Shown piece after piece: positions 1,045-63,238 of a stretch of DNA of 64,000 bases. Made by a program: the position numbers and the translations under genes. Source of the stretch: a virus; the IMG/VR virus record IMGVR_UViG_3300044993_000080, positions 20,417 through 84,416 of that record; one strand, written 5' to 3'. Positions within the stretch are counted from its first letter, which is position 1. The number at the start of each line of letters is the position of its first letter. Below the pieces are notes generated by a model that was not told the DNA's origin, did no database searches, and saw nothing but the letters and a program-made list of their open reading frames with translations.

Positions 1045-1143
1045 TACCCTACCCGCTTGGTGGTGAATGACGGCGTTTTATGCTGTCACGGTATGTGCGT
1101 CAAGTGCGCTTGCAACGGGTTGCAATATAGTTTGCCGCTACTA

Positions 1144-2103
1144 TTAGTAATCAACCGCAACAAGCCGGGACCGGCAATTGCCGTGAAGCGGCGGCACTGC
1201 AACACCCGCTGCGAGCATCTGCTCCGGGGTCAGTCCGGTCACGTCGCTGGCTTTCAACCATGGCGCTACAATTTTGATCTCGTCGCCTTGCGCAGCCGCC
1301 ACGCGATCCATGTATAGGCTCAAATCACCAATACGCCAGCGCGTGCCGTTAGTCGCCTGACAAATCTCGGATGTTCGGCTGTCGATGGTCGCCTGAAACA
1401 TCATGCCCGTAAAGCCGTATGCTTGCGCAGTCTTGATGTAGCCGTAATGGTAAGCACGCGATGCAGCGCCGTTGGCGACAAGGCTCCAGTAAGGAACACT
1501 GCGCAGCCGCCGATCCAGCAGCGCGCGGATTGCCCTCAACTGCTCACCGTCATTGGCGAGCCCATCGAGCACGGCGGCGTGCACTGCGTCTACCACGACT
1601 GGCATGACGTGCACGTTGAAATACTGGTTGGTGTAATACTTTGCGCTGGCACTCATCCCGTTGGTGATCTGTAACCGCTGAAGATCGGACAATAGCGGCC
1701 CGAACGCTATGTCGTGTTGGCCTAAGGTGATGATGTTCCACAAGGTCTGCCGGACACTGTTGTCGAGCCCACGTGGCCAATGCTGCGCCTGCCAGACCGC
1801 CCCGGCTGTCACCATGGCCGCTGTGATGTGTTGCTCATCGACATAGGTGCCGGACAGGGCCGCCTCCAAGTCGGGCTGGATAATGTCAGCTATTCGGACG
1901 GCGTTGTCGCTCAACTGCTGGGTAAGTTCGATCTCCCCATCAACGAACGGGGCATCGCCGGTCTCTTGCCTCAATACCCGGCGCAAGCCCGAATAATCCA
2001 CAACTGCGCGCTCCAGCCGCATCAACGTGATCCGGTCAAGAGCGTCCTCAGTCGCGTGGGTTCCGCAGCACCCGCAATTGATGTGCTCGGCGAAAAAGCT
2101 CAT
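1144..2103 (-). CDS. Head morphogenesis protein (SPP1 gp7 / Mu gpF-like)
   Basis: C-terminal D.RTS.IC and PPLHGNCRS motifs; directly downstream of the portal. Confidence 0.85.
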   Translation of the reverse strand: MSFFAEHINCGCCGTHATEDALDRITLMRLERAVVDYSGLRRVLRQETGDAPFVDGEIELTQQLSDNAVRIADIIQPDLEAALSGTYVDEQHITAAMVTAGAVWQAQHWPRGLDNSVRQTLWNIITLGQHDIAFGPLLSDLQRLQITNGMSASAKYYTNQYFNVHVMPVVVDAVHAAVLDGLANDGEQLRAIRALLDRRLRSVPYWSLVANGAASRAYHYGYIKTAQAYGFTGMMFQATIDSRTSEICQATNGTRWRIGDLSLYMDRVAAAQGDEIKIVAPWLKASDVTGLTPEQMLAAGVAVPPLHGNCRSRLVAVDY

Positions 2104-3935
2104 TGGACGGCCACCACCTGCTCTCGCGCCGGGTTGAAGTCGGCGGTCAGGTGAGAGCCCTCATCCAATGGACTGATGCGTGGTCTGGTTCGGGGTGGTG
2201 GGCTGACTTCGCGGTCCCGGTAGGAGGCCTGCTTGTTGGTTTGCAGCAATGTGGCCAAGTCACCCATGACGCGGCGGATCGCACGGCGTTTGCGCTGCGC
2301 GGTTTCCTCCTCTACTTCTTCTGCGCCTTCTGGTTCTTCATCACCTTCGGGGTCTTCCTCGAACTCCTCGGTTTCCTCGATGGCGGCCATGATCTCCTCG
2401 AAGCCCTTGATCTTACCGGCGGTGGCAAGCGCCCTCACCACCGCCCACGGGTAATTGCCCCACGGCTCGATAATCGTGGGGATGTCGAGCCCGAATTGTT
2501 CATTGGCTAGGCCGATAGCGACGTTCGGTGTCATCGCGCCGACTTCGTCAAACGCCCTCACGGCGCTGACGACCCCTTCCGGGTTGCTGATGCGCGGCGG
2601 GTTGGAACGGACCTCCCAATACTTAACGCCGTAAGGCCCCAGAATGTGTCGGTTGATGATGTCGTCCAGCACGGCCCGCTCCGGCCCGAATACTTGGCTC
2701 TCGGCGACCTCGTAGGCCACCTGTGCCGTGGAGCGGGTAAAGTCCTGTGAGTGGCCGGTAAAGAGCGCAGACAGCCGGAAGCTCGACCGCACTTTCTCCT
2801 GCTGTGCCTTGTCGTATTCGAGAAACTGCCCTTCCTTGATGCGCTCGCCTGCCAGTGGCTTCAGGTCCACTTTCGGGGCCGGAATGGTGCCATCCTTTGA
2901 CGCGGCGGTCTCATCACCCTCGACTTCGATGATGAGCACGCGGTTCTGGGCGGCGCGCCCACGGGCCGCTGTGACATGGCTTTCGATCTGCTCGATGGTG
3001 CCCGTCGCCAGCGTGCCACCGCTCACCAGCACGGCCATCGCCGGGATGGCGTTCTCCTTGAAGAAGTCAAGGTTGGTCAGTTCTGCCTGCCTTGATCCTT
3101 GAATGGCAACAAGATTGTTGAACCACCGGGGCAATCCGTAGTCCTGCCCCGGATAGTATTGCCTGACCATGATTATCTCGGTCGCGGTGTCCTCATACTT
3201 AAGGTTCTGCTCGACCTTGCCGTTGGTCGGGTTGATGTCTCGTGGGTCTCCGAACTCCTTGAAGTAAACCTTCTTGGTGCCGACAATCTGGACAAAGCGC
3301 CGGAAGTGGCGGCGGGTGACGGCGTTCGCCTTGCGCCCAAACTGATTGACTTCAGTGACAACCTGCACGGCCTCCTTCTCGCGGGTGGTAATCCGCATGG
3401 TGTGCGCCGGGATGTGGCCCATGAAAACAGGCAACTTGTCCTTGGTCCTGCCCACCTCGATGTAACTGAAGCCCAGACCCTCAATATCCCAGCGCAGCCG
3501 CTTGCGTAGCTCGACCAGTGAGTGCTCGGGGTGGATCGACCCCAGCAGGCTTTCAATGTTGGCCTTCTCAATTTGCGCGGCCTCAGTCTGCTCCTCACCG
3601 TCCGGCCCGACGTATTCGAGCCTCCAACCGTGGCCTTCGATGTTGATGACCATGGCTTCGATGCACTGACGCAAAATCGAGTTGTCGTTCGGCATCCGCA
3701 AGAGTGCTGCGAGGTTGACGGGAGGCGGCTGAATACGGAAGTCGCTCGCTCCCCCGACATCGTAGAGGTTATAAGTGCTGAACGGGTCCGGAATGGACTG
3801 CGAGAAGTCACCCCGCTGGACGGACTGAAGAATATCGTCCCCGTCCTGCGCGGTAGAACGACCCACGACATAAGTGCGGTCCCCTGCCTTACGACGTGCA
3901 CGTGTCCGGGCAGGCGGGTTGATCGTGACGGCCAT
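2100..3935 (-). CDS. Portal protein (PBSX-like family)
   Basis: 611 aa; YGLPRW, NLDFFKENAIP and MTPNVA motifs; head module context. Confidence 0.88.
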   Translation of the reverse strand: MAVTINPPARTRARRKAGDRTYVVGRSTAQDGDDILQSVQRGDFSQSIPDPFSTYNLYDVGGASDFRIQPPPVNLAALLRMPNDNSILRQCIEAMVINIEGHGWRLEYVGPDGEEQTEAAQIEKANIESLLGSIHPEHSLVELRKRLRWDIEGLGFSYIEVGRTKDKLPVFMGHIPAHTMRITTREKEAVQVVTEVNQFGRKANAVTRRHFRRFVQIVGTKKVYFKEFGDPRDINPTNGKVEQNLKYEDTATEIIMVRQYYPGQDYGLPRWFNNLVAIQGSRQAELTNLDFFKENAIPAMAVLVSGGTLATGTIEQIESHVTAARGRAAQNRVLIIEVEGDETAASKDGTIPAPKVDLKPLAGERIKEGQFLEYDKAQQEKVRSSFRLSALFTGHSQDFTRSTAQVAYEVAESQVFGPERAVLDDIINRHILGPYGVKYWEVRSNPPRISNPEGVVSAVRAFDEVGAMTPNVAIGLANEQFGLDIPTIIEPWGNYPWAVVRALATAGKIKGFEEIMAAIEETEEFEEDPEGDEEPEGAEEVEEETAQRKRRAIRRVMGDLATLLQTNKQASYRDREVSPPPRTRPRISPLDEGSHLTADFNPAREQVVAVQ

Positions 3936-3982
3936 CAGTGTCCTCGCGGGTTTGTAACCGGGGCACCATAATCGGGCATCGC

Positions 3983-5500
3983 TTACATATCAAGCTGCAC
4001 CCGCCTCTTGGCTCCCATGGTGCTTGTTGCAACGGGTTGCAAAACCCCACTCTCCGTGAACTGCAACTCGTTGGGCGGCAAATCCGCAAACAACTGGGTC
4101 AGGGTGTTGACGTGGTGATTATGCCCACTCCGCTTCGCATCCTTGCCAACGCTGGAGTAGTTGGACCCGCAAAGTATCACCCCGCCCGGTGCGTTGCGCA
4201 AGAGCACCGGGAAATTCTTGGTGCATACAGGAAAGTCGGGGCGACCATCCCACACGATCTTCGAGCGCAGATACTTGCGGCGGTGCATGGCGTGCTGAAG
4301 CGCGCTGGCGAAGTAGGTGTTAGACTGAATAGCGTGGGTGACGCGTGGGTCCATGCCGCGCTGTGGTGATAGGGGCGCGCTCTGGGTGCATTCGGCATCA
4401 GAGACAGCAACAGGAAGGATAAAAGCGACTTTGCACGTCTCAGCGATCCGCGTCCGCCACATGACGTGCTCGATGAATAGGAACCGATGGTAGCCGTTGC
4501 TGCGGTGGATCAGCACGTGATCGCCGCTATTCAGCACATCCTCGGCTCGCCGTCCGTAGCGCCCGTCCGGGAATGTGCGAAATGCCAGCAACCGCCCGGC
4601 GCACCCACTGACCTGTCTGTTGTCATATGCGTGCTCGACCGGGAACGGGGTGTTGTTGCGGTCTTCGAGCACGAGCCGCCGTTTGCTGTATCGGTGCTCT
4701 GCGCCCTTATCGCCCTTTACGTGACCCTGTGTCGCAGCCAGTGCGGCGCGGGCGGTGTTGACGGCTGACGCCCGTAAGTTGTTGTCCAGTTTTTCCTTGT
4801 GCAGTTCGCGGTTCGAATTGGCACACCATTTCTCGTATATATCCGAGATTACACACGTGAACCGACTATTGACCTGCATGTGGGTGTAGCCGACCTCGCG
4901 CGGCTCCAGCCACGGGTAGCGGGTGTCGTAAATGAGCGCCACCCAGTCGATATACCATAGAAGCTGGCCGTCCACTTCAACATCGCAGTCTTTAGGGTTG
5001 GAAATGTCAAAGTGGGCGACTAGGAAATCATAGGTTCGTATGTTTGTCCCGCCGATACATTGCGCCGCCGTCAATAGCTCGTCGTGACTGATTTCGGTAT
5101 AGACCACGGTGTCTTCGCCGCTGTCGTTCGGGATAGTGGAGAGCACCCGGACGATCTCTGCCTGAAGCCAATCGTCGTCTATCGAAAGCACAGGCACAAC
5201 CTGATCTTTGTGAACATCCTGCGTCATACGCCAGCCCTGAGGAATGTGCGGGAACTTGGCATCTTCGCCGGGCGCAAGATAGTAACAGATGCTGTGGCCC
5301 CAGTAGCCGTTATGGCCGCCAATGTTGTAGTGGGCTCGCCGCGCTTGCAGAACATGAACGTCGAGCACCGTGTAAGCCCCGTCGCAAACGGTCTCGTCTC
5401 CGATCCTGCTGAACTCGGGTCTGTAATGGAAGCGGCTGCTGCTCCAATCGCGTGTGTGCCGGACGTGGATGGGGTTAATACTGATACGCGCCAATTTCAA
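3983..5500 (-). CDS. Hypothetical protein, 505 aa
   Basis: Long ORF preceded by a promoter cassette and a GAGAGGAGA RBS. Confidence 0.7.
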   Translation of the reverse strand: MKLARISINPIHVRHTRDWSSSRFHYRPEFSRIGDETVCDGAYTVLDVHVLQARRAHYNIGGHNGYWGHSICYYLAPGEDAKFPHIPQGWRMTQDVHKDQVVPVLSIDDDWLQAEIVRVLSTIPNDSGEDTVVYTEISHDELLTAAQCIGGTNIRTYDFLVAHFDISNPKDCDVEVDGQLLWYIDWVALIYDTRYPWLEPREVGYTHMQVNSRFTCVISDIYEKWCANSNRELHKEKLDNNLRASAVNTARAALAATQGHVKGDKGAEHRYSKRRLVLEDRNNTPFPVEHAYDNRQVSGCAGRLLAFRTFPDGRYGRRAEDVLNSGDHVLIHRSNGYHRFLFIEHVMWRTRIAETCKVAFILPVAVSDAECTQSAPLSPQRGMDPRVTHAIQSNTYFASALQHAMHRRKYLRSKIVWDGRPDFPVCTKNFPVLLRNAPGGVILCGSNYSSVGKDAKRSGHNHHVNTLTQLFADLPPNELQFTESGVLQPVATSTMGAKRRVQLDM

Positions 5501-5550
5501 TCTCCTCTCGACACTGGCATATTGCCATAGCCTAGATTTATTGTCAAGCG
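5501..5550 (-). promoter_or_regulatory. Phage sigma70-type promoter cassette with shared leader
   Basis: TTGACA (5547-5542), 17 bp, CAATAT, then GTCGAGAGGAGA leader/RBS. Confidence 0.75.
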
Positions 5551-5553
5551 CAA

Positions 5554-6225
5554 TCAGTCGAGATTGATCTGGCGAGTGCTAGGCCTGACAGGCAAACGCC
5601 TTGCCGAGATATACCCTTGCTGCGTATTATTCATGGTCTCTGACCATGTTTTGCAGTTAGTGCCCCCCGCGCTGTCCATTAACCGGTTGACTACATCCGG
5701 CGTCTCCCGTGCGATGCGCAACAACACAGGGTCGTCTATCCTGCTTCCTACTTCGCCTGTCATGGCCCTGACCAGTCGAGAGAGCCCTGCGTGCTCTGAT
5801 GTGTGAACATAAATGAACTGGTCCGCCGCCGTGATAGCGAAAAAATGATTGTAGCCCTCCGTGTCTCGGAAGGTGTTCTCATTCCACTGCCCCACATGCG
5901 GTTGCGGCAACGCGCTCCACGATCTCTGGTGTTCCACGGACAACCAGATGACCGGCACGTCGGTGTCGATCATGTCCTGATCCGTAGGCTCTCGGTCGCT
6001 GACGACGATGACCTGCTTCGCGTCCTCAAACGCCAAGGGCATAGTATGCCGCCAATTCTCGCCCGCCACGTTGCGGTCCCGCAAGTCTTTCAACTCGGCT
6101 TCCTGCTGACCGCACTTCATCAAGAGCGCACGATACTTCCCCAGAATGCCTACCCCGGAATAAACCGTCATACCCGTGGCGATAACGAGACCCATCACTA
6201 ACCACGCGCTGACATCACCCATCAC
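5554..6225 (-). CDS. Hypothetical membrane-anchored protein
   Basis: N-terminal hydrophobic helix followed by a short coiled coil; start overlaps the upstream stop. Confidence 0.65.
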   Translation of the reverse strand: MMGDVSAWLVMGLVIATGMTVYSGVGILGKYRALLMKCGQQEAELKDLRDRNVAGENWRHTMPLAFEDAKQVIVVSDREPTDQDMIDTDVPVIWLSVEHQRSWSALPQPHVGQWNENTFRDTEGYNHFFAITAADQFIYVHTSEHAGLSRLVRAMTGEVGSRIDDPVLLRIARETPDVVNRLMDSAGGTNCKTWSETMNNTQQGYISARRLPVRPSTRQINLD

Positions 6226-6575
6226 TGCCGCTCCTTCGTCGCAAACTTCCCTCTGCCTGCATTAAACGGATAGTCTAGCGGGTGCTTGCTCTTGCCGGTT
6301 TTCGGGTCTCGCTCGTGCATCCACCTACGGAAATGAGCGTCGAACATGTAGCAGGGCAGTTGCGCGTTCGGAAACTTGGTCTGGTTCGGGTGTGGCACCT
6401 GCAACGTCACAACTGGCCATCCGAGCTTGCGAAGCTCGCTGCACCGAGCGTTGATGGCAAAACAGTTGTATTCGATGATGCTGCTAATCGGAGTGATCTT
6501 GTCGCCGGACAGCAAACCCATCAAAACACGCCACTGCTGGGTGCCCTCTTCGGGTAGTGGATTAGGGCGGGTCAC
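6222..6575 (-). CDS. Helix-turn-helix DNA-binding protein
   Basis: INARCSELRKLGWPV motif of small phage wHTH proteins; GTG start overlaps the upstream TGA. Confidence 0.65.
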   Translation of the reverse strand: MTRPNPLPEEGTQQWRVLMGLLSGDKITPISSIIEYNCFAINARCSELRKLGWPVVTLQVPHPNQTKFPNAQLPCYMFDAHFRRWMHERDPKTGKSKHPLDYPFNAGRGKFATKERQ

Positions 6576-6802
6576 AGGGGATACTCCAACCGCTTGAGGT
6601 AAGCCGCCGCATCGAGATGGGGACGACGAGTGCGCAACCAATGCACCCAATAGACGTCAATAGGCAACGGGGAGCGGTGAGGCCGGGGCGGCACGGGGCC
6701 GCGACTGCCGGATGCAAAAGGGAACGCCTTGCAGAAGGCGTCGAACGCATCGAGCACTTCGCAAGAGCTAGGAAGGCCAGCGGGAACAAAAGGTGCAGAC
6801 AT
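6572..6802 (-). CDS. Small hypothetical protein
   Basis: ATG follows a GTCGAGAGGAGA leader and a promoter (-35 at 6855-6850). Confidence 0.6.
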   Translation of the reverse strand: MSAPFVPAGLPSSCEVLDAFDAFCKAFPFASGSRGPVPPRPHRSPLPIDVYWVHWLRTRRPHLDAAAYLKRLEYPL

Positions 6803-6862
6803 ATCAAATCTCCTCTCGACCCTTACGGCCTAGCATAGCTGAGATTTGATGTCAACCCATGT

Positions 6863-6901
6863 AAAAAACGGCCCTGTCTCGCAGGGGGAGACAGGGCCGT
6901 T
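6863..6901 (-). terminator. Intrinsic terminator
   Basis: Perfect stem ACGGCCCTGTCTC/GAGACAGGGCCGT followed by a U6 tract on the minus strand. Confidence 0.85.
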
Positions 6902-6976
6902 CGTTTCGGCTAGTGGAAGGCGACACGAAACCTTGTCGAGAGGGAAACGTGCCTTTCTCAACACTCGCCTACTTAA
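6863..6976 (-). ncRNA. Predicted ~115-nt small RNA with an anti-leader loop
   Basis: Promoter TTGACA (7011-7006), 17 bp, TAACTT (6988-6983); no ORF; hairpin with loop UUUCCCUCUCGACAAGGUUU; ends in an intrinsic terminator. Confidence 0.6.
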
Positions 6977-7040
6977 GTCCCCAAGTTAGACTGGCAAACC
7001 CTGAATGTCAAGCGGGCTATGATGCAACCCGTTGCACGCT

Positions 7041-7349
7041 TTAAGCGTTGAGACGCTCCGCGATCCACGCGGCGGTCGATCCCCGGACATCCAAGTCGCC
7101 ATCCAACACCACGCAAATGCTGCGCCCTTGACTGTCGAAAACGTTGGGGCCGTCGCTGTGATAAGGCCCCCGCCCACGCTTGCGCCCCCCGGATTGTGAG
7201 GCCTCGACTGCACTGGTGTCCGGGGTCTCTTCCTCGGTTTCAAGTGCTGATGACGGCTCGGCGGCCACCACGCCCGTGGGACCTTCGATAGCTGCGGTGT
7301 CCGGGCGAGTGACGCGGGTGCGCGGGCTCGGGGTCTTGGTCTCGCTCAT
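7041..7349 (-). CDS. Hypothetical protein
   Basis: Strong AAGGAGGA RBS; N-terminal PSPRTRVTRP peptide. Confidence 0.65.
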   Translation of the reverse strand: MSETKTPSPRTRVTRPDTAAIEGPTGVVAAEPSSALETEEETPDTSAVEASQSGGRKRGRGPYHSDGPNVFDSQGRSICVVLDGDLDVRGSTAAWIAERLNA

Positions 7350-7424
7350 AATCTTCCTCCTTCGCTGTGGTGCTTGATACGCTGCCTATTAGCCGCCGTC
7401 CAGATTGATCGTCCGTGGGCGTTC

Positions 7425-7682
7425 TCACTGGCGGACAAGGGGGTCGCTTGCGAGCGCCGCTCTACCCGCTGCGGTGACGCTGTATGTCACTAGATTGTGC
7501 TTCACTTCATGACGGGACACGAAACCTCGTTCCCTCAATGATCGTAGTGCAGGAGCAACCCTGCTGGAAGCCTTGGCGCGCTCATGACCCAGAGCCAACC
7601 CCAGCAGGGTTGGTGTAAAACCGTCGCCGATTTGTTTTGCTGCCCGAAGTGCAGCTAATTCAGATTTCTTCAGCCTATCCAT
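7425..7682 (-). CDS. Winged-helix DNA-binding protein
   Basis: ALRSLRERGFV...YSVTAAGRAAL wing signature; GGAGGAG RBS; palindrome at 7725-7738 upstream. Confidence 0.7.
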   Translation of the reverse strand: MDRLKKSELAALRAAKQIGDGFTPTLLGLALGHERAKASSRVAPALRSLRERGFVSRHEVKHNLVTYSVTAAGRAALASDPLVRQ

Positions 7683-7742
7683 TTGCTCCTCCGTGGTCCG
7701 CCTATACTCATTGGTTGTGCGGGTTGCAACGAGTTGCAGCCG

Positions 7743-8429
7743 TCATAACATAACGCCCCCTTTGTCCGCGACATATAGCTTGGGTGACTGGATGCGCTGT
7801 TTACCCGCGCCTTCCAACGCGCTACGGATAAGCGCGATCCCTTCGTTTTCGTTCATTATCTCGCCGTGCCGCCAAACCTCGTAATCTACCCAGCGCTTGA
7901 TGTGCACTCGCCCGGTGTCATCGAGCCGGTAGTCGCTAACTGGGTATAGTTTGCGGTCCACCGCACGCGGCCACGTGATCGAATAACTATAGGACCGCGC
8001 CTGCACGAATACGACTGGCCGATCCGGCATGACGGTGTGGTCCACCGCAATGTCGAAGGGCACACCGTTCTTAGTGGCCGGTAGCCCGTCCAGCCGCTTC
8101 GTGTATTTCGGTGCGGCGAGGTAAGGGCAGACCTTGAGCGCGTAGCTGGAGCACTCGTGGTGCATAGGGCTGTCGATGTAGCAGCCGTGAGGGTGGAAAG
8201 CCGATAGCGGCCCTCCTACCCACCATAGGTCGCCGATCTCCAGCTCTCCGCCGCATATCGGGCAAAGCATTTCCTCCAACGCCTGCCACGACTTGCGATC
8301 ATCGTTGACCGTAAACAGCGGCTCCCCTGCGTTGTCACGCGCCACGTTCCATGGGATAGGGAAGCCCCGCCGATCTCTCGGCAGGTGCTCCATGCGTTCA
8401 GGGACAGGCACGTCCCACCACTTAAACAT
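7743..8429 (-). CDS. Hypothetical Cys/His (zinc-binding) protein
   Basis: CPICG and PMHHEC...CPYL motifs. Confidence 0.65.
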   Translation of the reverse strand: MFKWWDVPVPERMEHLPRDRRGFPIPWNVARDNAGEPLFTVNDDRKSWQALEEMLCPICGGELEIGDLWWVGGPLSAFHPHGCYIDSPMHHECSSYALKVCPYLAAPKYTKRLDGLPATKNGVPFDIAVDHTVMPDRPVVFVQARSYSYSITWPRAVDRKLYPVSDYRLDDTGRVHIKRWVDYEVWRHGEIMNENEGIALIRSALEGAGKQRIQSPKLYVADKGGVML

Positions 8430-9462
8430 GGCAATCGACCGCAACAAGGATCGTGTCCGGGTCCATGGCTTCGAGCCGGGCCATGATTTCGCGGTGCCAG
8501 TGCTTATTCTCACCGGCAACTACGGCGAACATCAGCATCTGGCCCTTCTCGTGCCAGCCGTCCTTATCGACCAAAGCAAAGGGCAGGACGGTCGTGGCGG
8601 CCTTGCGGAATACCACGTCATCACGCGGGCCGATCCAGTCGGTCACGCTGTCGAAAAAGTCAATGATCTTGCCCCCGGCCCAATGCTTTCTGTTTTTGTC
8701 GGTCGCGTCGAATGCCACGACTTCACGGGCCGCTACGATTGCGGGCTGCTGGTTGAATACCTTCCGGGCCGTGTCGTAATCAGAAGCATAGCGTTCTTTG
8801 ATAGTCTCCCACGTCTCGGGCTTGGGGTGCTGCGCCATCGCCGCGTGGATGTCGTCATAGTAACGTCCGTAACGCTCCGTGGCAGTCTCGATGCGCTGCT
8901 TGAACGGCCAATCGCCCAGCCGGATCGAGTTGCCGTCTCTGCGAAAGCCCTGAAGCGCAGCCGGGACGTTCGGGTTGTCCTCGGTGCCCTCCTCGCTGAA
9001 CATGCCGCTCCAGCGCCCGCCAATGACATACCAGTCCCACTTACGGTTCGGGTTGGTGCGGTTCACCACGCGGATGACCTCGTGCTCGCAGCCGACAACC
9101 TTGCCGTCATCGGCTGCGAGCTTGATCTGGAGCTTGGCTTTGGCCGGGCGAACTTCGATGTAGCCGTATTTGTGTTTACCGCTGATGTCCGGCGTCTCGC
9201 CTTCCATGACAAACTCCAGCCCGTAGTGGCTGCGCGCCCAGTCGGCGAAGCTCGTCACTTCCCCGCTGCGGGTCGTCGCGTATTCCCAGCTTGCGCGCGC
9301 CCCGTCGGTCTCGTCGACATCGACCACGTATTCGTTGTCTATGCCGGTGCACTCGAACTCGTGGTAAGGTGCGAGCATCGGGGCGATGGCCGCGCTCAGA
9401 TCGCCATTGGCCTCGGCCACCTTCTCTGGCGGCACCGCTACTATCACGACAAAATGCGACAT
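8422..9462 (-). CDS. Hypothetical phage protein
   Basis: NPNRKWDWYVIGGRW motif and C-terminal VDCH; AGGAG RBS. Confidence 0.7.
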   Translation of the reverse strand: MSHFVVIVAVPPEKVAEANGDLSAAIAPMLAPYHEFECTGIDNEYVVDVDETDGARASWEYATTRSGEVTSFADWARSHYGLEFVMEGETPDISGKHKYGYIEVRPAKAKLQIKLAADDGKVVGCEHEVIRVVNRTNPNRKWDWYVIGGRWSGMFSEEGTEDNPNVPAALQGFRRDGNSIRLGDWPFKQRIETATERYGRYYDDIHAAMAQHPKPETWETIKERYASDYDTARKVFNQQPAIVAAREVVAFDATDKNRKHWAGGKIIDFFDSVTDWIGPRDDVVFRKAATTVLPFALVDKDGWHEKGQMLMFAVVAGENKHWHREIMARLEAMDPDTILVAVDCHV

Positions 9463-9476
9463 TCATTCAACTCCTG

Positions 9477-10193
9477 TTATGGGTGGTGTCGGGTTTGACC
9501 CACTCCGGGTGCTTCGCCCTCTTCCATCTTGAGAGAGCCTTCATTCCAGCCTACCGGCCATCTAAAGGTGTCACTGTTGACGCCCCAGAGGTGGTATTGG
9601 TTAGCTGTATCCACCACGCGATCCTCGCATGGGTAGAGTTCGACGGCCTCGCAGTTCGGGCCTAGCAGTTCGTTCTTGATGCGCTGCATGTCCGCCCAGT
9701 GGGCGCGCAACGGCTTCTGGTCGTGGCGCTTGATTGACAGGTGCACCATCTCGATCACGCCACCTTCACCATCCATGGTGAGAGTGCGCCGGACCGCCAC
9801 GTGATACCGGGAATTGATGTAGTGCTCGTCTTCCATAGTCGTGAGGTAGATCGCGCGCATCTCTTCCATGGTCTTGCCGGACTTGGCACCTAGAATGCGA
9901 AAGCGCTCTTCCGCTCCGGCGGTGAAGAGCTGGCGCAGGTCTACGTCTGCGGGCTTGAATGGCGTCCATTCCGGGTCCGCGTCGAGCCGCCGCAGCCGCT
10001 CTCGGTAGAGGTCGTCGAGTATCCGCTCGTAATCCTGTGCCGGGCGCTGGCCAATCTCCGCGACGGCATACTTGAAGTCCTCGACCATCTCGGGGATATT
10101 CGAGTGCAGTCCGGCCACTACCGCCATAACACGGTCGATCTTTTCTTTCAGGTCTGCGTCGGTGAGCCCGCGCAAAATTTCGGGAGTAATCAC
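9477..10193 (-). CDS. Hypothetical phage protein
   Basis: HLSIKR..W.DMQRIKNEL.G...EAVELYP...HLW motif; coupled start/stop. Confidence 0.7.
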   Translation of the reverse strand: MITPEILRGLTDADLKEKIDRVMAVVAGLHSNIPEMVEDFKYAVAEIGQRPAQDYERILDDLYRERLRRLDADPEWTPFKPADVDLRQLFTAGAEERFRILGAKSGKTMEEMRAIYLTTMEDEHYINSRYHVAVRRTLTMDGEGGVIEMVHLSIKRHDQKPLRAHWADMQRIKNELLGPNCEAVELYPCEDRVVDTANQYHLWGVNSDTFRWPVGWNEGSLKMEEGEAPGVGQTRHHP

Positions 10194-10984: not shown

Positions 10985-11035
10985 AATCAACTTCCTCTCG
11001 ACTAGGCGAGACTATGGCCTAGGCAAGATTTGTTG

Positions 11036-11605: not shown

Positions 11606-11664
11606 GGGGCTCCTCTTTGTGAGTGCCCATAGTAAAGTAACCGGGATTTTACGTCAAGCGAAAC

Positions 11665-12485: not shown

Positions 12486-12491
12486 ACATCA

Positions 12492-17345: not shown

Positions 17346-17349
17346 GTAG

Positions 17350-54378: not shown

Positions 54379-55658
54379 GCCCCGCTCCACTCGTCTCCGA
54401 TAGGCTGCTCGCCTATGTGTCCGTTCCAATTCCCGTTCTCGTCTTCCGCCACAGGCTCGTCGTCGATCTCGTCCATGTTGAACGGCTCGAACTCAAAGCG
54501 GGTCAGGAAGCTCAGATGATCCGGGCCATGACGGTTCTTCAAAACCGCGATGCGTCGACGTGATCTCTCAAACGGCGCTGGTCCTCGCCTCATCCCCAAC
54601 ACAAGGCTGGAGACCTGCCCCACTACGTCCGTTCCGCCGATTTGCGACAGGTCCATATCTTCGTCTTGGGTGCTGGAGCGATTGAACTGAACTGTCTGCA
54701 AAATGGGTTTGTTCCGACGCAAGGCGAGCCCCTTGATCTCGGTGGCGGTGTCGGCCAGTGCCTCCCACCTCTTGCCCTTGTAGCGCTTGTCGCTCGGTTG
54801 CAAAAGGTAGCTGGCGTCAATGCAAACAAAATCCGGGCTGTGCTCTTGAATAAATGCGCTGACATCTGCAACGCTCTTGGTCAGGTCGCCCACTAGCATG
54901 GTAAAGGGCGGAAGCCCGCGCACCCGATCCATGGCGGCCTGCACCGCATCTTCGCCCCATTGCGACATGCGACCTCGGAGCATGAAATCGGGGTTGACCC
55001 CGGTGAGCATAGCCATGACACGGCGTGCGGTCTCCACTGCCGTCATCTCCATACTGACGAAGGCAATACTTGCCCCTCGCTGCCAAGCCCGGACAGCGGC
55101 GCGGGTAATGGCGTTGCTCTTGCCAATACCGGGCCGGGCCACGATGCTGCCAACGTCGCCATTGCGCAGTCCGCCCGTGATGTTGTCTAAGAACTCCCAG
55201 CCGTAAGACATTCCCTGAAGACCGGGCGAACTTCGGGCGATTTGATAGGTTTCCCACGCCTCTTGCAAAGCGTCTGCCAGTGTGCAGGTGTCCTGCTGAA
55301 CATCAACGCTCGAAATAATCATGGCAATCTCCCGGAATAACTCCCGGACCCGCTCCATGTTATTCGCCTGAAGCGCCTGATGCAGCGCGTTCTGGCGCTC
55401 CGAGTAAGCGCTGTAAACCGCGCGGTCTGATAGGCGCTGAAGGTGATAATCGACCGGACCGGTGGCTGCCGGGGTCGCCATGTTATTTTCAAGCATGACG
55501 GCGTAATCGGGCAACTGCCCGTAGCGCGTCAGGAACGCCATCACGAAGTCAAAGGTGCGGTGCTCTTCCTCAGTGAATAGCTCGCGCCGGGCGGACATGA
55601 ACTCACTGCGCGCCCCGTTGTCGATGCACGCCCGGATAAAGGTGAGCCCGGCGCTCAT
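54375..55658 (-). CDS. dnaB: DnaB-like replicative helicase
   Basis: ARPGIGKS, SMEM, ID..YL, Q.NR and KNRHG. Confidence 0.9.
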   Translation of the reverse strand: MSAGLTFIRACIDNGARSEFMSARRELFTEEEHRTFDFVMAFLTRYGQLPDYAVMLENNMATPAATGPVDYHLQRLSDRAVYSAYSERQNALHQALQANNMERVRELFREIAMIISSVDVQQDTCTLADALQEAWETYQIARSSPGLQGMSYGWEFLDNITGGLRNGDVGSIVARPGIGKSNAITRAAVRAWQRGASIAFVSMEMTAVETARRVMAMLTGVNPDFMLRGRMSQWGEDAVQAAMDRVRGLPPFTMLVGDLTKSVADVSAFIQEHSPDFVCIDASYLLQPSDKRYKGKRWEALADTATEIKGLALRRNKPILQTVQFNRSSTQDEDMDLSQIGGTDVVGQVSSLVLGMRRGPAPFERSRRRIAVLKNRHGPDHLSFLTRFEFEPFNMDEIDDEPVAEDENGNWNGHIGEQPIGDEWSGA

Positions 55659-56218
55659 CTCGGTTCCATCGCTTTGAGGCCCGTCGGCGTCACCCGCTCA
55701 AGGTGTTCACTGATGAACTCGATCATCTCGCCGGTCCAGTAGCAGTTCGGCATCTCGGCCATCGCGGTGTCCTCTTCGATAGCCAGTTGCAAGAATATCG
55801 CCTTGCCGTTCTCGTGGCGTCGGCGGATAGTGTATTCGACCTCGGCGGCAACGCTGTCATGCAACGGGTTGCCGCGATTGGTGTCTTGGGCGTTGAGCAC
55901 GACCAGAACATCCGCGTCCATCACTTGCTCCCGAAACTCTGGGTCATTGATTAGCCCGCGCATCCTCACCAGCGGCACTACCTTACACCCCACTCCATTG
56001 ATGTGAAGCCCGCGCGCCAGCATGATGATCGCATCCGTCATGCCGATCCCGTGAAAGGCTACGCCCTGTCCTTGCCGAATGGCCTTGCCCCGGCGCTTGA
56101 GGTATTCAAGCATCCCCGCGCCATGCTTCACGTCCCCCAACATGAGGTCGTGGTATCGCCTGCCGATCCCCGCCTCGAATAGAGACAGGCGGACTTCGCT
56201 GGACAGCCCTTCATTCAT
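55655..56218 (-). CDS. Degenerate DnaC/IstB-like helicase loader
   Basis: Between initiator and DnaB; AGI..RY N-terminus and AAA-like strand order, but no GxGKT. Confidence 0.55.
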   Translation of the reverse strand: MNEGLSSEVRLSLFEAGIGRRYHDLMLGDVKHGAGMLEYLKRRGKAIRQGQGVAFHGIGMTDAIIMLARGLHINGVGCKVVPLVRMRGLINDPEFREQVMDADVLVVLNAQDTNRGNPLHDSVAAEVEYTIRRRHENGKAIFLQLAIEEDTAMAEMPNCYWTGEMIEFISEHLERVTPTGLKAMEPR

Positions 56219-57518
56219 CAAACGGGTTCTTCGTGCTGACCATTGGGGCGGATAGAGGAACAAACTCAGGGTCGTTTGCAACGGGTTGCAGTTTCACCCG
56301 GTTTCTAGCGCGTATCTCTTGCGCGGCAATCGACCGGGGGTGCACAGGGGCCTTTCCGCCAAACTCGGCCAACCGTTCGGCCTGCTTGAGCTTGATGTCT
56401 GCGGCGCGAGACCGAGCGCGCACCTTGATCTCGCGGACCCGCATCTCGTCTCGAAGTTCGGCGATGGCGTGGCGCTTGGCGAACTCGGCGGTGGCCTGCT
56501 CGAAGGTCATCCCTCGGGCCATCATCCGCTCGATCTCAGTCCGCTCTTCGGCACTGGCCCACTCTTCCAACTTACCTTCTCCCCAGCACTCGGCAAACTG
56601 GTCAATCATGGCAACATAAAAGTTGAAGGCCGGAACGGCTGGTGGTGGGTTCTTTGTCATCCACTTAAACTGCTTCCGCATGATCTGGGTCCAGTTGCGC
56701 ACGGCCCAGTCGGTGAAGTCAATGAAGCTGATCTGGCGAAAGTTGGCCCAACCACTGGCGAGCCTCTTGGCCTGCCCCTTCTCCCTGCCGGTCCATACAG
56801 GTTCGACCACGTCCGGAAAGGTCTCGCGCAGTGCGTCGCGCCATGCAGCCTCTACGCCCCCGGACGTGGCGCGCTGACTACGGACTTTGAGCCGGGTGGC
56901 CTTGGCTTCTGCGTGGCTGGCCACGGTCCGCTCGATTGTTGCCCGGATAGTCGAAACGGGGTTTGGGGGCTCGCGGTCCGAAGAGGCCGCGTTACCTGTC
57001 CTTTGATTACCTGTATAGGGATTACCTGTATATTGGGTCTCTGTGAGAGACACCCTCGTCTCTGTGAGAGACACCCTCGTCTCTGTGAGAGACACCCTTT
57101 CCGACTTGCAACCGGTTGCATCTTTCTTCAATCGCTTCGGCAGATTAAGTGCCATCTTCGGGCTCCAATCGAGGCGGACACTGTAGTGGGTTTTGTCAGG
57201 ATTGAAAGCGTCGGCACGACGGCGGATCATCCCGCGCCCCTCCAGTGAGGACAACACACGATATAGCTTGGGGCGGCTAAGATTGAGGGGACCATTGACC
57301 TTGTCGCCCCGTAAGAGCCGCCCGGCGCTGAACTGCGCCTCGGTCCGTCCCCACCCAACCGTGCGGTCAACGATAGCTGAAAGCACTCGAAACTCATACG
57401 GGTCCAAGTGCTCGGCCCACTCTCGATTGAGCTTCTGGTAGATCATCAGCTTCGACTGAAGTGAAGAATAATCGTCATCGGAGCCCAAGCTAGGGAACTC
57501 CAGCACCTTGGCTGACAT
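56211..57518 (-). CDS. Replication initiator (lambda O-like, N-terminal wHTH)
   Basis: I.DRT.GW.R....S......G....LS........L...G.I pattern; internal iteron array. Confidence 0.75.
   Translation of the reverse strand: MSAKVLEFPSLGSDDDYSSLQSKLMIYQKLNREWAEHLDPYEFRVLSAIVDRTVGWGRTEAQFSAGRLLRGDKVNGPLNLSRPKLYRVLSSLEGRGMIRRRADAFNPDKTHYSVRLDWSPKMALNLPKRLKKDATGCKSERVSLTETRVSLTETRVSLTETQYTGNPYTGNQRTGNAASSDREPPNPVSTIRATIERTVASHAEAKATRLKVRSQRATSGGVEAAWRDALRETFPDVVEPVWTGREKGQAKRLASGWANFRQISFIDFTDWAVRNWTQIMRKQFKWMTKNPPPAVPAFNFYVAMIDQFAECWGEGKLEEWASAEERTEIERMMARGMTFEQATAEFAKRHAIAELRDEMRVREIKVRARSRAADIKLKQAERLAEFGGKAPVHPRSIAAQEIRARNRVKLQPVANDPEFVPLSAPMVSTKNPFDE
56991..57120. repeat. Candidate replication origin
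   Basis: GTCTCTGTGAGAGACACCCTC at 57037, 57058 and 57079; TTACCTGT at 56992, 57007 and 57022; TGCAACCGGTTGCA at 57107-57120. Confidence 0.8.
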
Positions 57519-58872: not shown

Positions 58873-59514
58873 CTAGAGCTTGAGCGCTCTACCGCGCCGG
58901 GTGGAGATCACTTGGACCTCTTCACCATCATGGGTCCGCACGATCTCCACTTTGGTCTTGGCCGGTGCACGGCGCTCCGGCGCAATCTGCTCCCTGATGA
59001 ACACCGCCCGGACCTTATCGGGCTTGGCCAATTGCAGGTCTTGTGCGTGTATGGGGATACGGGCGGCCCCGGCCTCTCGCAGCGAAACGACATCGAACCG
59101 ACCCTCGACAATGACAGCGGCGTTAGTGGACTGCCTGCTGTCGATCCTGCGAAGCTGCAACCGTTGCAAAGGCCCATCCTCTCGCGCCCGTATAAACACC
59201 ACGCCTTCCTCAATGAAGGGCCGGGAGCCGAACCGCGTCTTGCGTCGCCCATAGACCCGCAAAATCGCCCCCTCGGGCACGTTGAAGTTGCCGTCCCAGT
59301 AGGAACCTTGCTCTCGCACGCCTGTCGTGCTGGCAGGTAAGTAGGAAGGACGCGACTGCTCTGTGATGTGTTGACGGTTCTTGGCGGCTTCGCTGATAAA
59401 TACACCCTTGCCGCCCGGCACCTCGAACTTGGTCTGTGGTTCCAGCGTGACTATCAGCGCCGCGCTGCCCTCTTTGAAGGTTTCCGAACCTGTGATGCAC
59501 CTTATGAATGGCAT
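58873..59514 (-). CDS. Hypothetical protein
   Basis: ORF with RBS; C-terminal RRGRALKL. Confidence 0.65.
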   Translation of the reverse strand: MPFIRCITGSETFKEGSAALIVTLEPQTKFEVPGGKGVFISEAAKNRQHITEQSRPSYLPASTTGVREQGSYWDGNFNVPEGAILRVYGRRKTRFGSRPFIEEGVVFIRAREDGPLQRLQLRRIDSRQSTNAAVIVEGRFDVVSLREAGAARIPIHAQDLQLAKPDKVRAVFIREQIAPERRAPAKTKVEIVRTHDGEEVQVISTRRGRALKL

Positions 59515-61816: not shown

Positions 61817-62345
61817 CCAATACCTCCTGCATCTGGCGAAGCTCCTCTTGGTCGCTACGCGGCTGGGTTCGGGTTGCCGATTTCTGCGCTTCGGCGATCC
61901 AGCGATCACGTTGGCGGGTAAGGGACTGCACCTCCCTGATCTGTCGGGCCGACTGAGCGCGCATCCGCTCGGTCTCTTCGTTAAGGCGGCGGACCTCACG
62001 GGTTTGGGTCTCGGCAGTCGTCTTGTAGCCATCTCGCTCACGCCGGGCGATTGCTCGTTCGGTGATAATGGTGCGGACTTCACTGACGATTTTCTTGCGG
62101 TCGACCTTATCGCCGCCGTTCGCAGCCGCGATGATCTGCGCTACTTCGTCGAGCCGCCCGTTGGCCACATCCCGGTCGCTGGTAGCTTTCCACCACATGA
62201 AACCGCAAACAAGCAGGACGCCTGCGCCAATGCCTGCAATGACCCGCAGGCTCAATAGGCCCGTCGCTCCGGCGATGACAGCGCCCGCGCCTTGCTTAAC
62301 GCGAGCCGCTATCGTGTTTTCGGCAAATCTGCCCACGATGCCCAT
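61791..62345 (-). CDS. Inner-membrane spanin (Rz-like)
   Basis: N-terminal TM followed by a long coiled coil; follows the endolysin. Confidence 0.75.
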   Translation of the reverse strand: MGIVGRFAENTIAARVKQGAGAVIAGATGLLSLRVIAGIGAGVLLVCGFMWWKATSDRDVANGRLDEVAQIIAAANGGDKVDRKKIVSEVRTIITERAIARRERDGYKTTAETQTREVRRLNEETERMRAQSARQIREVQSLTRQRDRWIAEAQKSATRTQPRSDQEELRQMQEVLDALYRNGF

Positions 62346-63193
62346 TAGTCGAGCCCGTTGCTTCGGTTGTTGAAGCGCTTCCAGATGATGTAAGCTGACA
62401 GCGCGAAAATGATGAAACCAAGCGCCGTTGAAAGCCACGCTAGGTGCTGCAACTTGTCTGCTTCGCCCTGAAGATCGCGCATCGAACTGGTGGCTGTCAT
62501 CAGGCCCTCAACCGTGATGGGAGCCGCCACTACACTTCCGGTGACTGCGCCAACGATGCCCTTGCTGCTGGTAAGGGGTTTCGGCGGGTCCGGCTCAACC
62601 CGCTTACTGACGTCGGCGATGTATGTCCGCTCTTTTACAGGAACCTCTACCGGTCGCATGTAAAGCGAAGCCTCTTCGGCACGGCGTCGGGTCAAGCCGC
62701 GCATTACGCGCCCGCCCGCTTTGTTCCACAAAGCGAACTGCGCAGCCGCACCTTCATAATCGCCCGCCCTGTGCTTTTTCAGCAACGTGGAGCCCCCTAG
62801 TCCCCTGCCCCGGATACGCGGATTTCCCAACCCCACGTTGTAGGCGAATAGAACCAGTGCGTCGAACTGATTTTGGTTGGTCTCGGCCCCGCCTTGGATC
62901 AGGCGCATTACGCCGCGCTCGAACTTGTCGATGTCTGCATCGAACAGCGCTTCGGCCTTCTGGCGGGTGATGCGCATACCCAGTGCCAGCGGGACGCCGT
63001 CGAGCGTGCCTGTGTGACCCCAGCCAATCGTGGGACGTCCAGCGTCGTCGATGTATGTTTCGAGCGCGGGTTCGCCGCTCTTGAGAACGATCAGGCGATT
63101 ACCCTGCATCCGCCCGCCCGTCTCGTAGCGCTTCAGGATAGCGCGACCTTCATCCGATAGCCTCACTTTGACCTCCACTGCTGCCAAGACCAT
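62345..63193 (-). CDS. Endolysin, GH24 lysozyme with C-terminal membrane segment
   Basis: E...Y.D..G..TIGWGHT, QFDAL..F.YNVG, STLLK and GL.RRR.EE. Confidence 0.9.
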   Translation of the reverse strand: MVLAAVEVKVRLSDEGRAILKRYETGGRMQGNRLIVLKSGEPALETYIDDAGRPTIGWGHTGTLDGVPLALGMRITRQKAEALFDADIDKFERGVMRLIQGGAETNQNQFDALVLFAYNVGLGNPRIRGRGLGGSTLLKKHRAGDYEGAAAQFALWNKAGGRVMRGLTRRRAEEASLYMRPVEVPVKERTYIADVSKRVEPDPPKPLTSSKGIVGAVTGSVVAAPITVEGLMTATSSMRDLQGEADKLQHLAWLSTALGFIIFALSAYIIWKRFNNRSNGLD

Positions 63194-63238
63194 GTATCAG
63201 GTTCTCACTACACAGGGAAGCCTGCAACGGGTTGCAAA

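Follow-up and report, generated by a model that had tools for sequence, protein, structure and literature searches.

In a 64,000-nucleotide stretch of viral DNA (the window; bases 20417-84416 of the 84,416-base IMG/VR virus record IMGVR_UViG_3300044993_000080), the palindrome TGCAAC-NN-GTTGCA is dispersed in many copies. This palindrome is under DNA-level selection, is phage-encoded in origin and is common to a wide group of phages of 80-110 kb, recurring every 2-3 kb along their genomes. It is highly probable that the sites dock a symmetric DNA-binding protein that the phage itself encodes. The best explanation, which we hold with moderate confidence, is that the palindromes are docking sites on double-stranded DNA for one or more phage-encoded dimeric proteins of the ParB/KorB type, whose binding, joint action and effect we infer.

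A dispersed palindrome in a group of phage genomes

An earlier note, made by a model from the letters of the window, had listed 21 exact copies of the palindrome and 11 with one mismatch, and all 32 were recovered where it had placed them. It had also put the chance expectation at far below one copy in 64 kb. In 100 shuffles of the window that preserve dinucleotide composition, the mean number of exact copies was 0.01 (largest 1), and the mean for copies with up to one mismatch was 0.16 (largest 3). The full record carries 23 exact copies and none of a control pattern read backwards. Enrichment in the whole genome is restricted to the inverted order with a 2-nt spacer (these 23 copies); a 1-nt spacer occurs in 3 copies, and neither any other spacer from 0 to 8 nt nor the everted order gave a single copy. 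The flanks vary from site to site, except in five near-identical promoter-leader cassettes, and show none of the conservation seen around REP- or MITE-like elements. The conserved unit is the 14-mer itself, with no larger repeat unit around it.

By gene order and protein sequence, the source is an 84.4-kb phage distantly related to Rhizobium phage vB_RleS_L338C (hereafter L338C). The record carries a 127-base terminal repeat, and rough gene calls from third-codon-position GC place almost all genes on the minus strand. Gene order and proteins match L338C at 25-65% identity, and the genes shared between the two encode the capsid, protease, portal, terminase and tail proteins, RecA, DnaB, primase, DNA polymerase and three ParB_N proteins. 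Further relatives were gathered whose GC content ranges from 49.6% to 61.8%, which points to several different hosts. Exact copies of the palindrome number 48 in G001 (96 kb), 28 in G002 (93 kb), 29 in G003 (85 kb), 15 in the 37-kb fragment G004, 47 in L338C (110 kb) and 45 in RHph_I4 (108 kb), and the reversed control gave 0 in each.

The site is a 14-bp palindrome of strictly inverted order and fixed spacer, within the 13-16 bp size of ParB- and KorB-operator sites. Its centre, read on the coding strand, is CC or GG in a ratio of 12:5 (P 0.14) and is thus unoriented; a self-complementary CG centre, which makes the site fully symmetric, occurs in 2 exact copies in the window and 3 in the whole genome. 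As RNA, this clade's versions fold at best into a 5-bp stem of -2.1 to -2.5 kcal/mol. No common T-run follows the sites, nor do they form a stable hairpin of the terminator type, and an RNA or hairpin role for the palindrome is unlikely. These three properties (symmetry, lack of orientation at the centre and weak folding as RNA) fit a dimeric protein on double-stranded DNA. To this extent the dimeric-protein site proposed in the earlier note stands, while the three roles that it had offered (stoperator-like regulator, genome organiser and loading site for ParB-like proteins) are not discriminated by these data.

Spacing along the genome is more regular than chance would give. The same note had described gaps of mostly 1-4 kb; allowing one mismatch, the mean gap in this genome is 2,185 bases, with a coefficient of variation (CV) of 0.59 versus 0.96 for random placement (P 0.0002). 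All six genomes analysed in this way have gaps more regular than random placement gives (CV 0.46-0.65 versus 0.91-0.97; P from <0.0002 to 0.018), and in L338C the evenness holds when at most one site per spacer is enforced (CV 0.65 versus 0.96, P 0.0016).

Distant relatives of the capsid (39-49% identity) come from phages that carry variants of the core TGCAA-N4-TTGCA. These dialects, found by counting gapped palindromes de novo in whole genomes and by pattern search on further records, are as follows.

Agrobacterium phage JP1: TGCAAA-NN-TTTGCA, 33 copies
Stenotrophomonas phage DLP5: TGCAAT-NN-ATTGCA, 27 copies
Rhodobacter phage RcZahn: TGCAAT-NN-ATTGCA, 8 copies
Rhizobium phage RHph_Y1_11: TGCAA-N4-TTGCA, 15 copies
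Aeromonas phage HJ05: TGCAAC-NN-GTTGCA, the same as in this clade, 16 copies
Pseudomonas phage PaMx31: TGCAA(G/A)CG(C/T)TTGCA, 30 copies

The variable position changes symmetrically on both arms (C/G, A/T or T/A). Pattern search found no copies in Vibrio phage vB_VcaS_HC or Bacillus phage 0105phi7-2, and a de novo scan of vB_VcaS_HC revealed no other dispersed palindrome. The dialect tracks the phage clade and not the host: the Rhizobium phages L338C and RHph_Y1_11 differ, and DLP5 and RcZahn share one form. The possibility that the motif is a common host repeat was examined on plasmids pRL9-pRL12 of the L338C host, Rhizobium johnstonii 3841, and these 2,395,140 bases (plasmids only) hold 0 exact copies, with 3 one-mismatch copies versus 2 for a control pattern. 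Genome contigs searched with ParB_N-C (see below) and with the capsid protein yielded no relative, and hence no prophage copies. On this sequence evidence, the motif belongs to the phages, not to the host.

The positions of the sites reveal selection on the DNA. In the deposited annotation of L338C, 36 of the 54 sites (exact or with one mismatch) are wholly intergenic versus 8.7% expected (P 1e-25), and 36 of the 87 spacers of at least 14 nt hold a site. The window agrees, with 17 of its 32 sites wholly outside called genes versus the same 8.7% expected (P 1e-10); most of the others lie within about 100 nt of a gene end. No intergenic spacer holds more than one site. Positions are also kept between genomes whose proteins are only roughly 45% identical. 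Of the five genomes compared, all have a site upstream of the protease gene, four have one upstream of the portal gene and four have one within 8 nt of the start codon of a RAD25-like helicase gene; three of the four genomes that possess ParB_N-C have one upstream of it.

Intragenic copies speak to the same point. As the earlier note had observed for the window, they are read in differing frames, the 18 intragenic copies of L338C being split 12, 4 and 2. A gp026-like gene carries an intragenic site at the same codons in G001, G002, G003, L338C and RHph_I4, and the codons TTG/CTG CAA CNG GTT GCA, rare ones among them, are kept in these five genomes at 43-55% protein identity. Given the peptide, the chance of the motif is about 0.0016 per lineage (L338C codon usage). 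In the genome studied here the site is gone together with its peptide. This retention of codons indicates that the motif is conserved at synonymous positions and, with the intergenic excess, bears out the suggestion in that note that selection acts on the DNA; the motif is a symmetric, sequence-specific signal at the DNA level.

Many sites stand close to promoters. Using the opposite side of each site as a control, we scored a TTG(A/C)C box within 16 nt after the site on the coding strand. Such a box, mostly 7-11 nt past the palindrome, accompanies 9 of 38 sites in this genome (opposite side 1), 9 of 34 in G002 (0), 14 of 54 in L338C (2), 10 of 56 in G001 (1) and 1 of 31 in G003 (0). A stricter -35/-10 test gave 7/38 in this genome, 8/34 in G002, 16/54 in L338C, 15/54 in RHph_I4 and 9/56 in G001, versus 1-2% at random positions and only 1/31 to 1/37 in G003, JP1 and DLP5. 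At promoter-linked sites the palindrome centre is computed to lie near -50. Placement differs at other sites: the one at 7725 overlaps a -35-like box, that at 27311 follows a terminator, many JP1 sites lie between a -10-like box and the Shine-Dalgarno sequence, and the Shine-Dalgarno sequence is abutted by DLP5 sites and by L338C sites 11-17 nt from an ATG. Placement as varied as this is easier to reconcile with a repressor, a roadblock or a loading site than with an activator whose action depends on contact with RNA polymerase.

Five near-identical cassettes, at approximately 20040-20119, 34720-34797, 38170-38265, 40300-40376 and 41750-41834, have the layout CTTGACATAAAAT..., a 17-nt spacer, a CATGAT-type -10 box and then GGGGTCGAAAGGGAGAT...ATG. 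A comparable set in L338C reads TTGACAAAGGATCGGTTC...GTTAGATT and lies about 64 nt from the ATG. A simple promoter and terminator scan of window positions 1-20000 did not rise above the shuffle level. Readings of the palindrome as a sigma-54 or extracytoplasmic function (ECF)-type promoter were dropped on grounds of spacing and symmetry, by inspection only.

The sites in the window, with their surroundings, are listed here (ORF, open reading frame; HTH, helix-turn-helix; wHTH, winged HTH; aa, amino acids; window coordinates throughout).

1111-1124, exact: followed on the minus (gene) strand after 7 nt by TTGACG-17-TAAAAC and after 66 nt by the prohead protease start
4028-4041, exact: within the final 60 nt of ORF 3983-5500, with the portal start 92 nt downstream
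7023-7036, exact: 11 nt upstream of TTGACA-17-TAACTT, then no ORF for 372 nt
7725-7738, exact, centre TC: right half overlaps the -35-like box of TTGCAA-17-TATAGG; 42 nt upstream of an 85-aa wHTH ORF
10259-10272, one mismatch: 3' end of ORF 10190-10990; 65 nt upstream of the next gene start
12099-12112, one mismatch: intergenic; 32 nt upstream of the start of gene 11665-12066
14801-14814, one mismatch: terminator-like hairpin (14798-14782) directly after it on the minus strand
15929-15942, exact: within the weakly supported ORF 15808-16584
16748-16761, one mismatch: 7 nt upstream of TTGACA-17-CATGTT
18247-18260, exact: deep within the 596-aa gene 17350-19140
20106-20119, exact: heads a repeated promoter-leader cassette (CTTGACATAAAATCTCGCC...GGGAG...ATG) before a DUF6011 gene
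22546-22559, exact: 5' edge of ORF 22095-22565
23718-23731, exact: 81 nt upstream of the phage transfer-messenger RNA (tmRNA) gene (23225-23637, minus strand)
25316-25329, exact: 11 nt upstream of the ATG of gene 25002-25304; in the last 30 nt of an HNH gene
27311-27324, one mismatch: between a hairpin with T-run and TTGACA-17-TAACGT (11 nt downstream)
28189-28202, exact: 40 nt upstream of the start of gene 27423-28148
31553-31566, exact: 25 nt upstream of the ParB_N-C start; likewise 21 nt in G002 and L338C
34357-34370, exact: overlaps the 5' end of the ParB_N-A ORF (33579-34361)
34784-34797, one mismatch: heads a promoter-leader cassette (TTGACA-17-CATGAT)
36635-36648, one mismatch: 3' end of the 103-aa HTH ORF 36605-36916
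37023-37036, one mismatch: 106 nt upstream of the 103-aa HTH ORF
38252-38265, exact, centre TT: a promoter-leader cassette has its -35 box about 33 nt downstream
40363-40376, one mismatch: heads a promoter-leader cassette (TTGACA-17-CATGAT)
41821-41834, exact: downstream lie TTGACA-17-TATTGT (7 nt) and the gp074-like gene (105 nt)
43447-43460, one mismatch: overlap of the exonuclease and Holliday-junction resolvase genes
48224-48237, exact: the RAD25-like helicase gene has its ATG 6 nt downstream
51431-51444, exact, fully symmetric, centre CG: just past the DNA polymerase stop, with TTGAC boxes on both sides
54277-54290, exact: within the 5' part of the DNA polymerase gene; in L338C, one lies 49 nt into gp058
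55860-55873, one mismatch: within ORF 55655-56281
56277-56290, exact: start of ORF 55655-56281, inside the 3' end of the gp055-like gene
57107-57120, exact, fully symmetric: within the gp055-like gene, 9 nt from three iterons
59156-59168, 13-bp variant TGCAAC-N-GTTGCA: within the gp051-like gene
63223-63236, exact: 29 nt upstream of the lysozyme start

Candidate proteins that may read the palindrome

The search for a protein that might dock at these sites centred on families whose distribution follows that of the palindrome, with profiles built from orthologues in the clade and searched against all genomes. The families common to the 13 motif-bearing genomes comprise capsid, protease, portal and large terminase; RecA, DnaB, primase, polymerase, helicase, exonuclease, a RuvC-like protein and Holliday-junction resolvase; and a gp32-type single-stranded DNA-binding protein (SSB), a CDC48-type AAA+ protein, ParB_N and a gp074-like protein. 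Among these, as far as models can tell, only ParB_N and the gp074-like protein have folds linked to site-specific DNA binding. We consider it about an even prospect that this pair, or one of the two, is the reader. The candidate genes in the window are the following.

32840-33592, minus strand: ParB_N-B, 250 aa as called in the protein collection; PF02195; family common to the whole phage group
33579-34361, minus strand: ORF of the paralogue ParB_N-A, 260 aa
30988-31527, minus strand: paralogue ParB_N-C, 179 aa; identity of 54-73% within the TGCAAC clade; G001 lacks a close orthologue
40456-41715, minus strand: gp074-like gene, 419 aa; candidate reader whose conserved C-terminal domain is connected by a long A/E/K-rich linker to a small N-terminal domain

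All three ParB_N paralogues in the window carry PF02195, the N-terminal (CTPase-type) domain of ParB, and the family was found in 13 of 13 motif-bearing genomes. It shows sequence similarity to Noc (E 3e-8). An AlphaFold2 model of ParB_N-B (predicted local distance difference test score, pLDDT, 73.3) superimposes on residues 52-192 of KorB (8qa8_A) with Z 14.4 and a root-mean-square deviation (rmsd) of 2.2 over 131 residues, and on PadC with Z 14.1. Past the KorB-like part, the model has a disordered stretch and then a small C-terminal unit. A ribbon-helix-helix reading of this C-terminus had no Pfam support and only one structural row (Z 2.7), and was not relied on.

The ParB_N genes have some neighbours of their own. 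At 30988-36360 on the minus strand, the three paralogues and a protein with a PAPS-reductase domain lie directly upstream of the terminase genes, and a weak methyltransferase-like ORF is found near this cluster. In G001, palindromes at 34468-34481 and 34506-34519 straddle a ParB_N start; separated by 38 bp, they are the closest pair in the record (G000), G001, G002 and L338C.

The gp074-like family was likewise detected by profile search in 13 of 13 motif-bearing genomes. When the model of its C-terminal domain (pLDDT 85.2) was used in a wide structural search, DNA-binding domains of the ParB family came out on top, taking 8 of the best 25 rows. Matches were to ParB-parS 6s6h (Z 7.1), Spo0J 1vz0 (Z 7.0, rmsd 2.4 over 88 residues), KorB 8qa8 (Z 5.9), the KorB-operator complex 1r71 (Z 5.5), SopB (Z 4.6), P1 ParB (Z 4.4) and VirB (Z 4.2). 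ParB_N-B and the gp074-like protein therewith map onto adjoining parts of KorB, residues 52-192 and 151-252, respectively. The ParB-type HTH domain may not be joined to the N-domain here: the ParB_N-B alignment ends at KorB residue 192, and the fold resembling a DNA-binding domain (DBD), with middling scores of Z 7.1-5.5, is in a separate protein. The earlier note's suggestion of ParB-like proteins gains support from the distribution of ParB_N and from the KorB-like model of one member, while the protein with the most DBD-like fold is the gp074-like one, which that note had not named.

The gp074-like gene is itself preceded by a site. A palindrome lies no more than 103 nt upstream of this ORF in 9 of 10 genomes, versus 0.06-0.36 expected per 650 nt, and the nine include RcZahn with its only 9 sites. 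In HJ05 and PaMx31 a site occurs about 100-150 nt upstream of the family match, and PaMx31 has two ParB_N genes immediately after its gp074-like gene.

Other shared proteins were less suitable. The AAA+ protein was rejected as a reader because it is of the CDC48/FtsH type and not a DNA binder. A gp064-like protein was set aside too, as it reads as a gp32-type SSB (H/C/C/C motif, DLDDDVPF tail and family consensus). The minus-strand gene at 48288-49421 encodes a conserved 377-aa protein with an H..C..C..C zinc-type motif and a C-terminal DLDDDVPF resembling the tip of host SSB; it reads as an SSB of the gp32 kind. For a gp054-like protein, comparison with a protein atlas gave nothing usable, and scans of about 60 window proteins with Pfam, PHROGs and NCBIfam revealed no clear regulator.

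In the mechanism that we propose, ParB_N, with its resemblance to the CTP-binding N-domain of KorB, and/or the C-domain of the gp074-like protein would read TGCAA-N4-TTGCA. Docking would take place at the heads of transcription units, at most once per spacer, and at a few fixed intragenic places. The docked complex would then control transcription genome-wide, as KorB does from the OB operators on RK2, and might in addition maintain or organise the DNA of the phage in a carrier state. A more specific form of this proposal, tentative and on balance doubtful, is a 'split KorB' in which ParB_N would supply the nucleotide-switch N-domain and the separately encoded gp074-like protein the site-reading domain, in a large group of siphoviruses (80-110 kb) with alpha- and gammaproteobacterial hosts; the two would load at 25-50 evenly spaced sites and coat or silence the chromosome without ParA.

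Several observations weigh against docking by a ParB/KorB-type protein. On the ParB_N side, the match in RcZahn is weak (E 4.5e-4), and the correlation of the family with the motif rests on one negative genome, vB_VcaS_HC, which lacks the motif and in which a profile search did not find ParB_N. The nucleotide-pocket motif is an invariant E-G-(H)-G-R, with G-F-H-R in the C paralogue, and it differs from GERR, the canonical nucleotide-binding arginine motif of ParB, so that the use of CTP is uncertain. A search with PF13614 for ParA-type ATPases turned up none in five genomes, its control being positive in all 14 (PF01656 was not searched), and this argues against a classical partition role. The Pfam, PHROGs and NCBIfam scans named above also found no integrase or recognisable immunity repressor among the roughly 60 window proteins, so that a lysogenic or carrier state of this phage is hypothetical.

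The evidence for the gp074-like protein has weak points as well. Its match is middling (Z about 7), and values below 8 can reflect a common arrangement only; a helical Raf1 domain equals the ParB rows on this model with Z 6-7. Foldseek returned no match for the model at E 0.001 or better, and the family profile had no match among PDB sequences. Moreover, vB_VcaS_HC has a gp074-like gene but no dispersed palindrome; the SSB, helicase and AAA+ genes are kept there as well. A final difficulty concerns the geometry of the site. The 13-bp variant with a 1-nt spacer, TGCAAC(A/T)GTTGCA, is enriched in L338C (12 copies) and RHph_I4 (7 copies), and a rigid dimer is not expected to tolerate it. The L338C copies, at 8269, 16755, 23492, 26500, 27175, 33685, 37329, 90812, 93381, 96199, 98614 and 105535, always have A or T at the centre; 10 of the 12 lie within annotated genes, and one heads a normal promoter cassette.

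Known site arrays and alternative explanations

Among described systems, KorB and the OB operators of the IncP plasmid RK2 come closest; RK2 carries about 12 OB sites, and the phages have 23-48 sites per 84-110 kb. Both systems combine a compact dispersed palindrome on a mobile genome, at varied distances from promoters, with an encoded ParB-family protein, and the likeness extends to the models of ParB_N-B (KorB 52-192, Z 14.4) and the gp074-like protein (KorB 151-252, Z 5.9 and 5.5). They differ in that the phage N-domain-like and DBD-like folds appear to reside in separate proteins, the pocket is G-H-G-R, no ParA/IncC-type ATPase was found in the five phages searched, and the phage side is known from sequence and models. 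According to the available text of the KorB study (PMC11790492), KorB of RK2 belongs to the ParB family and works as a CTP-dependent sliding clamp and global repressor: it is loaded at scattered palindromes and represses promoters both close by and at a distance, and the core of OB is TTTAGCGGCTAAA, in contrast to the TGCAA-N4-TTGCA of the phages. By this analysis, the phage system may be classed as a variant of the site arrays of ParB/KorB type.

Three other systems share some of these features. The earlier note had pointed to the stoperators of mycobacteriophage L5, a comparison that fails on two counts: stoperators are oriented with transcription and asymmetric, and the palindromes are neither. 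No immunity repressor was identified in the scanned proteins of this phage, which is a further difference. The available part of the Cluster A literature (PMC9283540) describes many stoperators across the phage genome, largely in short intergenic spacers, a distribution like the present one, but asymmetric and bound by a monomeric repressor, as opposed to palindromic with an unoriented centre. Cluster O mycobacteriophages, from what is accessible of their descriptions (PMC6439249, PMC4351075), carry about 30-31 copies of a 17-bp dyad-symmetric repeat along a siphovirus genome, conserved in the cluster. Their sequence, host phylum and phage lineage are unrelated to those considered here. In chromosomal parS, the half-sites stand in the opposite order to those of the phage palindrome, and the sites are few, clustered near the origin and accompanied by ParA, whereas the phages have a genome-wide lattice and no ParA was found. 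The resemblance to ParB-parS and to Noc with its NBS sites is that 14-16-bp palindromes are read by a ParB-type HTH (structures 6s6h, 1vz0 and 7nfu).

The literature searched, which did not cover supplements that possibly hold motif tables, contained no published description of the palindrome. The available portions of the DLP5 and DLP3 papers do not mention a palindrome, an inverted repeat or TGCAAT, and those of the R. capsulatus phage paper do not mention a palindrome.

A first alternative, unlikely but with some evidence in its favour, is that the palindromes serve as operators for a small phage transcription factor of an ordinary kind, with no relation to ParB, which shuts off or times many units in the way that the CIR sites of phiC31 serve a global repressor with many operators. 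Two proteins in the window could be such a reader.

7425-7682, minus strand: 85-aa ORF; its winged-helix match, of PadR type, is weak (PF03551, E 4e-4) and falls short of the family cut-off
45247-45810, minus strand: 187-aa protein with an excisionase/MerR-type HTH (HTH_17)

Immediately ahead of the 85-aa wHTH gene, site 7725 overlaps a -35-like box, and this geometry is typical of autorepression. A homologue of this protein was present only in G002, however, among five relatives searched that all share the identical motif, and the 85-aa protein was rejected as a general reader on account of this narrow distribution. The HTH_17 protein is better conserved, occurring throughout the clade and in HJ05, PaMx31 and vB_VcaS_HC, but its predicted recognition helix varies between genomes with an identical motif, and its profile finds no match in JP1, RcZahn, RHph_Y1_11 or DLP5. 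About a quarter of the sites in four genomes flank sigma-70-type promoters, as this alternative would have it; the conserved sites deep within genes and the even spacing are unexpected for a simple set of operators.

In a second and distinctly improbable alternative, the palindromes would organise or maintain the genome, as centromere-like sites or as anchors for condensation or packaging set at intervals that cover the chromosome, with no primary role in transcription. The plasmid-prophage N15, for example, has several dispersed centromere sites. Gaps that remain more even than chance after the control for spacers, the retention of sites inside genes and the presence of ParB_N proteins are consistent with such a role. 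So is the lifestyle of the motif-bearing relative DLP5, which is reported, in the accessible part of its description, to be temperate and to replicate as a phagemid (PMC5834331). Yet the sites are drawn strongly to gene starts and promoters and not to any place that would tolerate them, their number (25-50) far exceeds the needs of partition, and a ParA-type ATPase was found in none of the five genomes searched.

Three further alternatives are each very improbable. One is that the palindrome acts single-stranded, as an RNA signal for processing, stability or translation or as a signal for priming or replication on single-stranded DNA. Many copies abut a Shine-Dalgarno sequence or start codon (seven in L338C, and others in DLP5 and JP1), the gaps between sites are close in size to Okazaki fragments, and 1-nt and 2-nt spacers give similar 5-bp hairpins, so that the shorter form would be tolerated more easily than by a rigid dimer. 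The hairpin is nevertheless marginal in energy, as given above, and every stem position is fixed with none co-varying. The clade-specific change at positions 6 and 9 stays symmetric although these bases cannot pair across a 2-nt loop, the centre has no orientation with respect to transcription, and many copies lie upstream of -35 boxes. A box of a conserved host factor exploited by the phages hardly explains the data either: the core is common to phages of alpha- and gammaproteobacteria, and the JP1 version TGCAAACGTTTGCA resembles what we take to be a LacI/PurR-type box, but the L338C host plasmids (plasmids only, not the chromosome) hold no exact copy, and the dialects follow the phage clade, most of them without the central CG of LacI-type boxes.

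It is similarly improbable that the palindrome serves as the recognition site of a phage system that modifies or cuts DNA, for instance the cluster of ParB_N, PAPS-reductase and methyltransferase genes. A gene with the PAPS-reductase domain does lie between ParB_N genes, and DLP5 DNA is reported, in the part of the paper available, to be heavily modified, with 4 of 36 enzymes cutting (PMC5834331). This gene was, however, undetected in the motif-bearing G001, JP1, RcZahn, RHph_Y1_11, DLP5, HJ05 and PaMx31, and a modification system built on PAPS-reductase therefore cannot be required; nor need a modification target be enriched, evenly spaced or tied to gene starts.

Neighbouring features and implications

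Several other features of this genome were recorded. ARAGORN identifies a permuted (two-piece) tmRNA at 23225-23637 on the minus strand with the tag peptide ANDNPQETALRLAA followed by a stop, so that the ORF called at 23306-23722 is probably spurious. Three perfect 21-bp tandem repeats (unit GTCTCTGTGAGAGACACCCTC) occupy positions 57037-57098 within the gp055-like gene, whose product has a weak TrmB-type winged-helix match. These repeats look like origin iterons within an initiator gene, an arrangement known from lambda O. An ATP-dependent DNA ligase and two HNH endonuclease ORFs are encoded on the minus strand at 38905-39954, 25301-26329 and 38274-38693; the ligase has no homologue in close relatives and matches a DLP5 protein at 30% identity. 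Outside the window, at G000:C1:186-1967, a 593-aa plus-strand ORF is followed by three small ORFs; none of the four has a Pfam match, and their GC by codon position is unusual (0.75 at the first position). The 593-aa ORF may encode a glycine-rich fibre protein or not be a gene.

If docking by a ParB/KorB-type protein is correct, the palindromes would constitute a genome-wide regulatory or organising layer common to cultured phages of Rhizobium, Agrobacterium, Rhodobacter, Stenotrophomonas, Aeromonas and Pseudomonas. TGCAA-N4-TTGCA every 2-4 kb would then also be a simple marker for this phage group in metagenomes. The biology of ParB and its CTP switch would extend from plasmids and chromosomes to phages of lytic or phagemid type, and this might explain how phagemids such as that of DLP5 persist without a classical partition ATPase. 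The proposal can be tested in tractable pairs, namely L338C on R. leguminosarum 3841 and DLP5 on S. maltophilia. Should the nucleotide switch and the site-reading domain indeed be encoded apart, the result would be a chromatin-like control layer spanning the phage genome, which could underlie carrier or phagemid states.

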